Source: Escherichia coli
GTDB lineage: Bacteria; Pseudomonadota; Gammaproteobacteria; Enterobacterales; Enterobacteriaceae
Reading direction: 5' to 3' (one strand)
Length of the DNA: 64,000 nt
Assembly (NCBI RefSeq): GCF_046105845.1
Contig: NZ_CP151004.1
Of the stretch, positions 22,644 to 52,034 are shown piece after piece (the stretch's first letter is position 1; every line of letters starts with the position of its first letter). The notes beneath the pieces were generated by a model, which saw nothing but the letters and a program-made list of their open reading frames with translations, searched no databases and was not told the origin of the DNA. A program made the position numbers and the translations under genes.

Positions 22644-22691
22644 TTTCTTATTCCTCTTTAAACCTGTCTGAACCGTTATCAACCGCGCAAT

Positions 22692-22729
22692 AAAAAAGCC
22701 CCCGGAAGGTGATCTTCCGGGGGCTTTCT
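22692..22729 (-). terminator. his operon attenuator terminator
   Basis: agcccccggaag...cttccgggggct hairpin followed by U-run on the minus strand, between hisL and hisG. Confidence 0.8.
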
Positions 22730-22788
22730 CATGCGTTCATGCACCACTGGAAGATCTGAATGTCTTCCAGCACACATCGCCTGAAAGA

Positions 22789-22839
22789 CTAGTCAGGATG
22801 ATGGTGATGATGGTGGTGTTTAAATTGAACGCGTGTCAT
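22789..22839 (-). CDS. hisL: his operon leader peptide
   Basis: Minus-strand translation MTRVQFKHHHHHHHPD* with seven consecutive His codons. Confidence 0.92.
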   Translation of the reverse strand: MTRVQFKHHHHHHHPD

Positions 22840-25065: not shown

Positions 25066-25331
25066 AGAAAAATTATTATGACAAGCCTCTCATTCTCTTG
25101 TCATTTCCCCCCCATTTAGGCACAATGCGCCGCTGTCAAAAAATGACTAAAAACCGACGTTTAATTAGCGTCGGTTATTTTTTGCTTCAAACCAATCATT
25201 CATACCAAGAGGCCGGGCTTCGTACCGGATAGATATTTACTAAAAATCGACAGTTGTTGTCGCTGAGGAATCCAAAAAAATGGGGCAATTTTTTGCTTAC
25301 GCGACGGTTATCACCGTAAAGGAGAATGACC

Positions 25332-49316: not shown

Positions 49317-49518
49317 CGAAATAATCTGGCAGTTATAAACGTTTATTTTTTTACTGTTTGTGATCTGCTTTCCGAACTTATTAAAAAGTCTCCCGCTTCA
49401 CGGAGGCTTTTGTTATTGTCCTTTGTGCTTCTCGTCAGTAAATCATCAGGGATGATGTGAAGATTAAATGTAAAACAATTGTTTTGCTATAACAATAAAT
49501 TAACTGGGAGGTTTTATC

Positions 49519-50433
49519 ATGATTTCTGCGGCGACACTTAATTCAGAACTCATTAATAAAATCGCGCAGGATTTTGCGCAGGCGACCAGCCTTGCGGTTG
49601 TCGTGGTCAATATTCACGGCGATGAAATTTCCGAGCTGTTTAACTTCACTCCATTTTGTCAGATGATGCGGCAACACCCTCAGCTAAGCACTCGATGTCG
49701 CATGAGCGATCGTTGTGGGGGCTTGGAAGCCTCTAAATCCGATCAGCCTTGTATTTATCGCTGTCATGCCGGATTAACCGATTTCTCTATTCCACTGGTA
49801 ATCGCCGGGCATTTAGTCGGTTTTGTATTGTGCGGGCAAGTTCGTCTGCGTAATGATGATGTCGATTTGGTCGATATTCTGAATGTCGATGATTGCTGGC
49901 AGGCAGATCCCGAATTACTTAATGAATTCCGCAAAGTTCCTGAGATGGATTACTCAAGAGTTATGGCCTCTGCTGATTTGTTGAAGTTGATTGTGGAAAA
50001 TTGCCTCAAAAAACAACTCAATTTTGTGGTTATTAAAGAGAACAAATCTCAGTCAGATTCGGTGCGCCAGACTCGTGCGCCTAATCCCCACGACAATAAA
50101 ATGAAAAAAGCTTTACGCTATATTGATGCGCATTTATCAGACGATTTGCGTCTGGAAGATGTCGCCTCACACGTTTATCTAAGCCCTTATTATTTCAGTA
50201 AGTTATTTAAGAAATACCATGGAATCGGGTTTAATGCGTGGGTAAACCAACAACGGATGGCCAGCGCTCGTGAGTTACTGTGCCATAGTGACTGGAGCAT
50301 CGCCAGCATTGCGCGTAATTTAGGTTTTTCACAAACAAGTTATTTTTGCAAAGTTTTCCGTCAGACTTATCAGGTTACGCCGCAGGTGTATCGACAGCAA
50401 GTGAGTGATAATGCGGCGATGGAAACGGTATAG
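49519..50433 (+). CDS. pocR: AraC-family activator of pdu/cob regulon
   Basis: 304 aa; C-terminal AraC HTH; matches Salmonella PocR as I recall it. Confidence 0.94.
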   Translation: MISAATLNSELINKIAQDFAQATSLAVVVVNIHGDEISELFNFTPFCQMMRQHPQLSTRCRMSDRCGGLEASKSDQPCIYRCHAGLTDFSIPLVIAGHLVGFVLCGQVRLRNDDVDLVDILNVDDCWQADPELLNEFRKVPEMDYSRVMASADLLKLIVENCLKKQLNFVVIKENKSQSDSVRQTRAPNPHDNKMKKALRYIDAHLSDDLRLEDVASHVYLSPYYFSKLFKKYHGIGFNAWVNQQRMASARELLCHSDWSIASIARNLGFSQTSYFCKVFRQTYQVTPQVYRQQVSDNAAMETV

Positions 50434-50544
50434 AGTAAATGCCCCAAAAAAAGAGGACGGTTTAAATAAACTCTGCAATGAATAATTAACGTTATTTACC
50501 TGTTATGGGAAAAGTGAAATCAGCTCATAACATACGCTGACAGG

Positions 50545-50760
50545 TGTGGCACATTTGTGCCTGGGAAGAGGGTGAAAATCCCTCGCAGCCCCCGCTGCTG
50601 TAATGCTGACAAACCCGAAAATGCCACTGATCGCGAGATTGGGAAGGTCGGGAGAGGATGACGCTAAGCCAGAAGACCAGCCAGTCAGTCAATACCAACA
50701 ACTTCGGTGGGAAGTGGGTTGCCCGGAAGCGTCCGGTAGAGTACCGGCGCGTCTTTATAC
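50545..50760 (+). promoter_or_regulatory. cobalamin (B12) riboswitch-like leader
   Basis: Contains GGTGAAAATCCC, GCAGCCCCCGCTGCTGTAATG, B12-box GCCACTG, GGGAAGG and AAGCCAGAAGACC elements in the order typical of cobalamin riboswitches. Confidence 0.6.
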
Positions 50761-50917
50761 CCCTACCACCCTGAAAGGATCAGGGTATGGCGGCATCATT
50801 TAGTTCTTTCATCGCAGTGCCGACAGGCACCAGGGCTGCACTTAAGGTGTGGCAATCTTGTTTCATGGCTCATCAACCAGACCGCCATTACAGGAAACTA
50901 AGTGGAGGGCGAGAGGC

Positions 50918-51355
50918 ATGAAAACGATAAAACCCGAATCGATAGCTCTTTTTTGCCTCTTATCTGGAGATGTGGATCTGGCGAAATATCTGGCTGAAAT
51001 ATTGCCAATAACCTGTTTTGTTGGTGAGGACTGGCAGCAAGATTTCCAGCCTCTTGATGGTGGGTCTGTGCAATCGTTATCAGATGTGTATGGCGATTAT
51101 TCAGTGCTGCTATTGATAGCAGCTGAAAGCGAGATATCCGTACCAGAATGGCTCGCTCATTCTGAAGGAACGACGGTAATTGTGATTGCAGAACACAATG
51201 CCCGTTTGCTGACTGGTCCGGCTGGTGGGGCTGTAGCATTGATCCATTATCTGAATGAAATCTGTCATTCCAGAGAAACCGCTGTCAATGACGCATTTTG
51301 TCGTACGTTAACACGAGGAAGTCTGGCTATTCCGCAATGCCATCTTCTTTCGTAA
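50918..51355 (+). CDS. hypothetical protein downstream of the B12 leader (possible cbi remnant or novel ORF)
   Basis: ORF 50849..51355; internal ATG at 50918 preceded by GGAGGG; no family recognised by eye. Confidence 0.3.
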   Translation: MKTIKPESIALFCLLSGDVDLAKYLAEILPITCFVGEDWQQDFQPLDGGSVQSLSDVYGDYSVLLLIAAESEISVPEWLAHSEGTTVIVIAEHNARLLTGPAGGAVALIHYLNEICHSRETAVNDAFCRTLTRGSLAIPQCHLLS

Positions 51356-51488
51356 TGGATTGAGAATGCTGGATTTTTAATTATATTACGCGCAGTATTA
51401 ATCGCGTAAATGTTTTGCGGTCAGCAACGGTGGGGGATCCATTGTTCTGTTCAATGAATACCATCATACAATTGAATCAGGAGTCGGT

Positions 51489-52034
51489 ATGATGATTTTG
51501 GTGACAGGTGGAGCACGGAGCGGGAAGAGTCGCCATGCAGAGGCGCTTATTGGGGACTCTTCACAGGTTCTGTATATCGCCACCTCGCAAATCCTTGATG
51601 ATGAGATGGCTGCACGGATAGAACATCATCGGAAAGGCCGCCCGGCGCACTGGCGCACGGTGGAGCGTTGGCAACATCTTGATGAATTAATTCATGCAGA
51701 CATTAACCCGCATGAAGCTGTGTTGCTGGAATGCGTTACCACAATGGTGACTAATCTGTTGTTTGATTATGGCGGAGATAAAGACCCTGATGAATGGGAT
51801 TATCAGGCGATGGAACAGGCAATTAATGCTGAGATTCAGTCGTTGATTGCTGCCTGCCAACGTTGCCCCGCGAAGATTGTATTAGTGACTAACGAAGTGG
51901 GAATGGGGATTGTGCCGGAGAGTCGTCTGGCACGACATTTTCGTGATATTGCCGGGCGGGTAAATCAGCAACTGGCCGCTGCGGCAAATGAAGTGTGGCT
52001 GGTGGTTTCGGGTATTGGAGTAAAAATCAAATGA
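51489..52034 (+). CDS. cobU: adenosylcobinamide kinase / adenosylcobinamide-phosphate guanylyltransferase
   Basis: 181 aa; P-loop GGARSGKS. Confidence 0.96.

Follow-up and report, generated by a model that had tools for sequence, protein, structure and literature searches.

An in-frame remnant of cbiG kept behind an adenosylcobalamin riboswitch upstream of cobU in Escherichia

The interval between the cobalamin riboswitch and cobU of Escherichia coli raises a simple question: is the open reading frame (ORF) found there a gene, a remnant of lost cbi genes, or a chance frame? The window analyzed here is a stretch of 64,000 nucleotides (nt) from contig NZ_CP151004.1 (assembly GCF_046105845.1). 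Its mechanical ORF list contains a frame of 168 amino acids (aa) with a GTG start on the plus strand (50849..51355), placed between the riboswitch aptamer and cobU. The same interval in Salmonella (locus L085) holds cbiA through cbiP, and cbi genes would therefore be expected at this site. A previous sequence-only reading had given this location, an internal ATG preceded by GGAGGG, and the expectation of cbi genes; the ORF list, the sequence and Rfam confirmed the former points, and the Salmonella layout the latter. We consider it moderately probable that the ORF encodes a weakly constrained, translated, non-enzymatic protein tied to the pocR/pdu/B12 regulon, and that it is not dead DNA.

The identity of the ORF was obtained from profile comparisons. 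The protein matched the NCBIfam model of the CbiG equivalog (NF004463) with an E-value of 1.1e-18 and 67.6 bits over model positions 1-125 of 351. An hhalign comparison of the ORF family with an enteric CbiG profile aligned aa 1-117 to CbiG 1-124 (probability 99.8%, E = 9e-29). For locus comparison, 80 loci from GTDB representative genomes were fetched by CobU. In tblastn searches, the ORF matched cbiG in more than 50 loci of Citrobacter, Salmonella, Klebsiella, Kosakonia and Buttiauxella at 37-45% identity (42-45% to Citrobacter and Salmonella cbiG), always from residue 1. In those enteric loci cbiG is located about 8.1 kb 5' of cobU, whereas the Escherichia ORF abuts cobU. By this homology, the ORF comprises the 5' third of the gene for cobalt-precorrin-5A hydrolase, hereafter cbiG'. 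The sequence-only reading had found no family match by eye, naming CbiA and CbiP, and this was overturned by the NCBIfam and hhalign matches to CbiG. Nor was the ORF unrecognised, since it is already annotated as 'cobalamin biosynthesis protein' in RefSeq and as 'CbiG' in strain LF82 (LF82_328).

The predicted protein, a shortened and degenerate offshoot of the CbiG lineage, differs from CbiG in several respects. CbiG of Salmonella, Citrobacter and Klebsiella (NF004463) has 351 aa, three domains and a cbiF-cbiG-cbiH setting, whereas cbiG' has 145 aa. Of the three-domain architecture CbiG_N + CbiG_mid + CbiG_C (~351 aa), the N domain alone is present, and the score did not reach the curated cut-off of NF004463 (546 bits). 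Salmonella CbiG carries PF11760, PF11761 and PF01890. Pfam gave no match at E ≤ 10 for the window protein, so that CbiG_N (PF11760) was not recognised, and no CbiG_N match at E ≤ 1 was found among 10 ORF family members; genuine CbiG N-termini do match PF11760. The N-domain motifs ATG(I/V)xVR..AP and SGHxGGAN, invariant in enteric CbiG, are not retained. The enteric motif GATGIAVRVLAP reads AAESEISV----P in the ORF, and SGHAGGAN (SGHxGGAN) reads TGPAGGAV, or SSSGKAT in E. fergusonii. Relative to CbiG, the ORF also carries 4-aa and 3-aa deletions. A derived motif of its own, GE(D/E)WQQxF, replaces CbiG SEKLLEEGF and is invariant among Escherichia alleles, and its Gln codons differ silently between the window and E. 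fergusonii.

With no middle or CobE-like C-terminal domain and with degenerate conserved motifs, cbiG' cannot, judging from its domain content, be the CbiG enzyme. Neither cbiF nor cbiH adjoins the ORF, which is flanked by cbiA and cbiP relics instead, and the genomes examined yielded no cbi pathway. A Citrobacter cbiP DNA query in distant mode returned no cbiP-like DNA in 5,426 complete E. coli genomes, and no cbi gene was seen from leader to cobU in the loci read; no substrate pathway is therefore in sight. A working CbiG, as the names in RefSeq and LF82 would have it, is thus scarcely conceivable with a match that is partial, far below the cut-off and degenerate in GATGIAVRVLAP and SGHxGGAN. 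The same very low probability applies to a novel small gene unrelated to cbi, which the empty Pfam result might suggest; the homology to CbiG is beyond doubt, and the ORF is therefore not an unrelated gene.

The start codon was assigned from the same alignments. The ATG at 50918-50920 and the TAA at 51353-51355 delimit a product of 145 aa, and this ATG corresponds to position 1 of CbiG. Because all homologues begin with MKTIKPES or MQTIKPDS and RefSeq gives 145 codons in most records, the alignments indicate that the true start is the ATG at 50918 and not the GTG at 50849. All Escherichia alleles retain a purine-rich GGAGG/GGGAG before the ATG. Starting at the GTG would add 23 codons, which overlap an upstream ORF in another frame and probably do not belong to the translated protein.

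Two protein collections were searched (5.8 billion clusters and 1.84 billion representatives), and in both the truncated CbiG form was found only in Escherichia. The ORF has 144-145 aa in E. coli, E. albertii, E. marmotae, E. whittamii and cryptic-clade genomes. The E. fergusonii ORF has 156 aa and 47-50% identity depending on the alignment. The frame was open in the seven of seven E. coli sampled with riboswitch context, across the identity range, and in the E69 allele, as well as in E. whittamii, E. marmotae, two Escherichia clade genomes, E. albertii and E. fergusonii. All carriers share the architecture pdu-pduF-pocR-riboswitch-upstream ORF (uORF)-ORF, and the C-terminal tails of the ORF in all Escherichia alleles, that of E. 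fergusonii included, are homologous; the truncation is therefore older than the split of these species. Being conserved in frame across the genus, the ORF is, on these alignments, more than a chance frame.

Among Escherichia alleles, aa identity was 68-74% for the ORF, 96-97% for pocR and pduF, and 88-91% for cobU. Although the ORF is less conserved than any other coding stretch of the locus, its divergence tracks codon phase. Pairwise divergence at codon positions 1, 2 and 3 was 0.151, 0.127 and 0.236, and all indels were multiples of three. The ratio of nonsynonymous to synonymous substitution rates (dN/dS, NG86) was 0.38 in frame (bootstrap 95% confidence interval 0.27-0.51), compared to 0.81 and 0.86 for the same alignment in the two other sense frames and a mean of 0.76 in a neutral simulation with the observed transition/transversion ratio. 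By blocks, dN/dS was 0.25 for aa 1-66 and 0.23 for aa 88-121; aa 67-87, the former GATGIAVR loop in which the motif is destroyed, was neutral at 1.07. Pairwise maximum-likelihood omega values were 0.42-0.74 for the ORF, 0.15-0.26 for cobU and 0.04-0.12 for pocR. No stop or frameshift was found in about 15 alleles keeping the riboswitch context, at dS of 0.3-0.5, and above 1.2 to E. fergusonii. For a neutral ORF, the probability of staying open under substitutions alone was 0.10-0.15 per lineage at a branch length of 0.15-0.2, and 0.011 at 0.6. The ORF is not a decaying pseudogene and is under weak, frame-specific purifying selection.

These values bear directly on the reading as a plain pseudogene, in which the relic is merely undisrupted so far and the constraint is noise, riboswitch hitch-hiking or ascertainment. 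Like neutral pseudogenes, the ORF arose by truncation and lost its ancestral function; as a gene fragment it has neither catalytic domains nor catalytic motifs, it evolves faster than any other coding stretch of the locus (identities given above), it is widely deleted in E. coli, and some allele pairs are near neutral. However, it shows neither the accumulated disruptions nor the neutral dN/dS of such a sequence: the codon-phase pattern, the confidence interval below the neutral simulation and the intact frame in the riboswitch-context alleles at that dS all argue against it. The loci L004 and L006, which were reached via cobU and not from a protein database, are intact as well, which speaks against ascertainment. 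Real decay over the same period is seen in the cobU of E. albertii, and we regard a plain pseudogene as quite improbable.

The E. albertii locus was examined together with that of E. fergusonii. In E. albertii, cobU (L087 6436-6957) is a decayed pseudogene with ATG changed to CTG, deletions of 95, 9, 43 and 1 nt, and stops; it serves as an internal control for neutral decay at this locus. The cobT gene is deleted and cobS is still open, and the ORF is intact. In E. fergusonii (L084 8001-8700), cobUST is entirely absent, and downstream of the 156-aa ORF come a REP-like palindromic element and then ldtA. The riboswitch aptamer scored about 113 bits in both species (112.9 in E. fergusonii), as high as anywhere. 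Omega in pairs with E. albertii or E. fergusonii was 0.30-0.44 and was not raised. These loci indicate that the ORF is kept independently of cobUST.

The leader in front of the ORF is preserved. Window positions 50500-50795 align collinearly with the Salmonella leader (L085 5001-5303) at 82% identity through the cbiA start ATG GCG GCA, and nucleotide homology to Salmonella cbiA ends at 50795. The flanking pocR and cobU of the window are about 80% and 74% identical, respectively, to those of Salmonella at the nucleotide level. The adenosylcobalamin (AdoCbl) aptamer is of full length, and RF00174 scored 105-113 bits in six other Escherichia loci. Across Escherichia, identity was 87-95% in the aptamer and 91-94% in the expression platform, compared to 42-75% in neutral-like segments. 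The hairpin that would sequester the ribosome-binding site (RBS) has a predicted energy of -13.9 kcal/mol, and the same fold was obtained for Salmonella and E. fergusonii; as predicted, it would allow the platform to occlude the RBS of the first frame (AUG at 50787). The coordinates of these features are listed in the table.

Table. Features of the pocR-cobU interval in the window and the basis of their assignment
Feature	Position	Strand	Basis
pocR, AraC-type regulator of Pdu/Cob, directly 5'	49519..50433	+	ORF list; RefSeq of 99-100% identical E. coli loci
cob operon leader	50500..50786	+	Rfam; comparison with Salmonella
AdoCbl riboswitch aptamer, full length	50525-50699	+	RF00174, 109.4 bits against a gathering score of 31.5
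RBS-sequestering hairpin (stem ACCCUGA, loop AAGGA, stem UCAGGGU)	50768-50774, 50775-50779, 50780-50786	+	Predicted fold
uORF (cbiA'), 44 codons, from the ancestral cbiA start ATG GCG GCA	50787..50921	+	
Shine-Dalgarno-like GGAGGG	50904..50909	+	8 nt 5' of the ORF ATG (sequence)
cbiG' proper, ORF codons 1-125, homologous to the CbiG N-terminal domain	50918..51292	+	
C-terminal tail (aa 126-145) and stop	51293..51355	+	
Non-coding cbiP 3' relic, the ORF-cobU spacer	51353..51488	+	Collinear with the last ~135-145 nt of cbiP in six enterics
Promoter-like TTGAGA-16-TATATT (10/12 matches)	51360-51387	+	Within the cbiP relic; scan yields no more than shuffles
cobU Shine-Dalgarno AGGAG	51479-51483	+	Within the cbiP relic
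cobU, first intact cobalamin gene downstream, then cobS and cobT	51489..52034	+	ORF list; RefSeq

The Salmonella cob leader reportedly combines an AdoCbl riboswitch with an RBS-sequestering hairpin before cbiA, in work attributed to Ravnum and Andersson and to Nahvi et al. The window resembles it in overall identity, in a full-score aptamer, in the same ACCCUGA/UCAGGGU hairpin around AGGA, and in the same ATG GCG GCA. The difference lies downstream. The Salmonella leader controls a cbiA of 459 codons and then 16 more biosynthetic genes, whereas in the window it is followed by a 44-codon relic ending on the cbiG' start. In E. fergusonii, unlike Salmonella, nothing cobalamin-related is located 3' of the leader relics.

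That 44-codon relic, the uORF, connects the leader to cbiG'. By eye, its first 15 or so residues are similar to the N-terminus of CbiA (MAA..FI..TG). The UGA at its end (50919-50921) overlaps the ORF AUG (50918-50920) as AUGA. In eight of eight non-fergusonii alleles, the uORF has exactly 44 codons, the AUGA overlap and no indel; in E. fergusonii it has 49 codons and ends 20 nt inside the ORF, as the Salmonella cbiF/cbiG overlap does. The dN/dS of the uORF was 0.55 in frame compared to 0.75-0.76 out of frame. No significant match of 50796-50913 to Salmonella, Citrobacter or Klebsiella cbi genes was obtained by tblastx or blastn. The hairpin would act on the uORF and would reach the ORF solely via the AUGA overlap.

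From what is known of the Salmonella cob leader, AdoCbl binding would occlude the RBS of the uORF. Ribosomes that finish the uORF could re-initiate on cbiG'; given the overlap of the uORF UGA with its AUG, coupled translation of cbiG' at low AdoCbl is probable. Production of the protein would accordingly be expected at low AdoCbl with an active PocR-dependent promoter. The data show the identity, anatomy, conservation and selection signature of the pieces; control of the uORF by the riboswitch, translational coupling and a role for the protein are what we infer here. In pdu-positive Escherichia, the salvage genes, or at least the relic, may still answer to PocR and AdoCbl.

Several observations were made on RNA structure in the uORF. 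A hairpin at 50835-50863 (GCUGCAC...GUGUGGC) is followed by AAUCUUGUUU; the T-run is interrupted in the window and has 6-8 T in other Escherichia. This hairpin and T-run were considered as a translation-sensitive attenuator or as a terminator and rejected, being weak (-7 to -11 kcal/mol) and no better than shuffles; no clear covariation was found in the hairpin. The uORF start AUGGCGG (50787-50793) is perfectly complementary to CCGCCAU located 95 nt downstream (50882-50888). The pairing was kept in six of six Escherichia alleles folded, with some G-C changed to G-U, and may occlude the start codon or be chance. In allele P0001, a small change just 5' of the ATG produces an in-frame uORF-ORF fusion of 188 aa (MAASFSS...KLWRARGMKTIKPES...).

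The same arrangement could be read as a cis-acting spacer. In that case the product would be irrelevant, and translation of the ~570-nt stretch would prevent Rho-dependent polarity or mRNA decay and so pass PocR/riboswitch control to cobUST. The uORF fits this, with strictly conserved length and AUGA and weak aa constraint (0.55 vs 0.75-0.76), and the overall constraint on the ORF is also weak. The cobUST genes lie on the same strand with no convincing terminator between, and control of cobinamide salvage by PocR and AdoCbl would be physiologically sensible beside pdu. However, stop-avoidance alone would leave missense changes neutral, yet two blocks of the ORF have dN/dS of 0.23-0.25 and the derived motif is invariant despite silent codon changes. 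E. fergusonii, without cobUST, and E. albertii, with cobU decayed and cobT deleted, still have both the ORF and a full-strength riboswitch. In addition, a 133-nt untranslated gap precedes cobU, which has its own Shine-Dalgarno sequence, and most E. coli hold intact coding sequences of cobU, cobS and cobT without leader or ORF. We therefore consider a spacer unlikely.

Because cbiG' is kept under weak purifying selection independently of cobUST, we consider a minor non-enzymatic role tied to the pocR/pdu/B12 regulon likelier than dead DNA. A number of results weigh against this preferred reading of a translated, weakly constrained protein. The constraint is weak (omega ~0.5 by maximum likelihood, and 0.73-0.94 in pairs with the E69 allele), and within the E. 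coli clade omega was 0.50 for the ORF vs 0.09 for cobU in the same genomes. Polymorphic codons within E. coli comprised 17 amino-acid-changing and 9 silent cases. Some E. coli alleles (136 aa) are without the GGA of the most conserved GGA motif. The CbiG N-domain motifs are lost and Pfam recognition is absent. Several alleles came from a protein database, which favours intact ORFs. No covariation support for the coupling was found in the predicted RNA structure around the ORF start, nor for a structure occluding the Shine-Dalgarno sequence of the ORF. The product is predicted to be an alpha/beta protein of about 145 aa with the CbiG N-domain fold, and the AlphaFold2 alignment behind this prediction is dominated by true CbiG sequences, so the fold leans toward CbiG. 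Finally, about 88% of complete E. coli genomes have lost part or all of the ORF, and 644 of the 5,426 keep at least 80% of it. Since these deletions have at least seven left end points, the ORF is dispensable, at least once pdu/pocR is gone.

Independent searches with the ORF protein did not extend the structural assignment. A PDB sequence search gave nothing below E 0.48, and Foldseek against PDB gave nothing below E 0.01, with generic Rossmann-like matches only. The predicted local distance difference test score was below 50 for residues 135-145.

A further reading takes cbiG' as a neofunctionalised mini-protein. It would be the real cargo of the cob riboswitch, and the sole one in E. fergusonii and E. 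albertii; produced at low AdoCbl, it would feed cofactor status into Pdu. It might hold or hand over corrinoids, or damp PocR/pdu expression without cofactor. Such a protein would explain the riboswitch and uORF coupling together with an ORF kept without a downstream cobalamin gene, as well as the rise of GE(D/E)WQQxF and an intact ORF beside a rotting cobU. We hold this reading to be possible but doubtful.

The origin of the ORF can be read from its two ends. The leader homology to the cbiA start, cbiG' and the cbiP relic imply two deletions, by which the ancestor of the genus Escherichia would have lost the cbiA-cbiP block. The first would have run from just after the cbiA start (codon ~3-15) to just before the cbiG start, through cbiF, and the second from cbiG codon ~125 to the last ~135 nt of cbiP. 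From the alignments, the second joint probably lies in or near 51293-51355. The tail at 51293-51352 gave no significant similarity to the remaining cbiG or to cbiP in tblastx and blastn comparisons with Salmonella, Citrobacter and Klebsiella cbi genes. Its dN/dS was 0.46 and its nucleotide identity was neutral-like (70-75%). The spacer behind it gave local scores of 15-20 against cbiP, compared to 8.2-8.7 +/- 1.2-1.4 for shuffles, and none of 300 shuffles was as good. Identity to cbiP per 15 nt climbs from 51353 on, and the ORF TAA sits in cbiP-derived sequence, out of the cbiP frame.

The sequence-only reading had offered two options, a fusion or leftover of the cbi deletion and a small riboswitch-controlled gene, and both hold together. 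The remnant is the 5' third of cbiG, flanked by the cbiA start and the cbiP 3' end, and it is still placed behind an intact AdoCbl riboswitch and RBS hairpin, which would control it. Conservation, proposed there as a check, also came out in its favour: the ORF is kept in related genomes, and the similarity to cbiG is in frame rather than limited to out-of-frame fragments.

The cobU-proximal region is a rearrangement hot spot in E. coli. At least seven left end points of deletions or insertions 5' of cobU were found, at window positions 51015, 51184, 51229, 51301, 51306, 51349 and 51361. One deletion type joins a pduV fragment to ORF codon 34. In K-12 and most E. coli, a 'cobalamin biosynthesis protein' pseudogene fragment 5' of cobU represents the same locus and ancestral sequence. 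It consists of the last ~48-57 codons of the ORF and the cbiP relic, and carries the RefSeq flag 'incomplete; missing N-terminus'. In K-12, the riboswitch, the uORF and the first ~90 codons are deleted and IS5 adjoins, whereas the window has the complete ancestral arrangement with pocR and pduF. The K-12-type remnant was 86-88% identical to the window at the nucleotide level. The E69-type ORF was just 69% identical in aa to that of the window, compared to 91% for CobU; such divergent E. coli haplotypes suggest old polymorphism or introgression between Escherichia lineages. The promoter-like TTGAGA-16-TATATT site is kept in K-12-type genomes and is a candidate cobU promoter. If real, it would account for the expression of cobUST in genomes with a deleted leader.

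That E. coli has lost its cbi genes is textbook knowledge, associated with Lawrence and Roth. This loss and the annotation of the ORF were known already; the ORF is a known kind of relic, unusually preserved. In the searchable literature, we found no study of the ORF beyond one transcript table of adherent-invasive E. coli LF82, no description of the exact relic anatomy or of the riboswitch-uORF-ORF arrangement, and none of genus-wide preservation of the fragment, including species without a downstream cobalamin gene. In that table, LF82_328, annotated as the CbiG protein of cobalamin biosynthesis, adjoins pocR (LF82_329) and pduF (LF82_330), and its expression in pure culture was 16.7 reads per kilobase per million mapped reads (RPKM) after 2 h and 13.0 after 24 h, above most pdu genes listed there (PMC4509574).

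The window represents the ancestral Escherichia state after the loss of B12 synthesis, with pdu, pduF, pocR, the riboswitch, the relic frames and cobUST, and its anatomy pins both deletion joints, the second to within or near 51293-51355. The locus is a natural example of a gene fragment outliving its pathway as a weakly constrained, probably translated ORF, with a true pseudogene (cobU of E. albertii) as its counterpart. Should the product have a role, it would represent a protein under riboswitch control with an enzyme domain as its origin, relevant to 1,2-propanediol use by gut and pathogenic E. coli such as LF82. Without such a role, the locus would still serve as a calibration case for separating relic ORFs from genes.

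In Firmicutes, B12 riboswitches control regulators of propanediol and ethanolamine use, including Listeria AspocR and Rli55 and Enterococcus EutX. The Escherichia locus would be analogous to these in having a cobalamin riboswitch near pocR/eut regulators with a target that is not a B12 synthesis or transport gene. Such targets would link cofactor availability to catabolic operons. The Listeria and Enterococcus elements work as non-coding RNAs, through antisense pairing or by sequestering a protein, whereas cbiG' bears a signature of protein-coding selection.

A 113-aa frame on the minus strand (50898-51239) was considered as an antisense gene and rejected, with 2-12 stops per allele in every antisense frame of other species. 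Rfam placed the small RNA (sRNA) STnc230 at 49375-49458 (-), between pduF and pocR, a position shared by Salmonella and all Escherichia loci examined. Over the whole window, the Rfam scan also gave a histidine operon leader at 22690-22813 (-) and the sRNA STnc240 at 25111-25185 (+), which are unrelated to the ORF.

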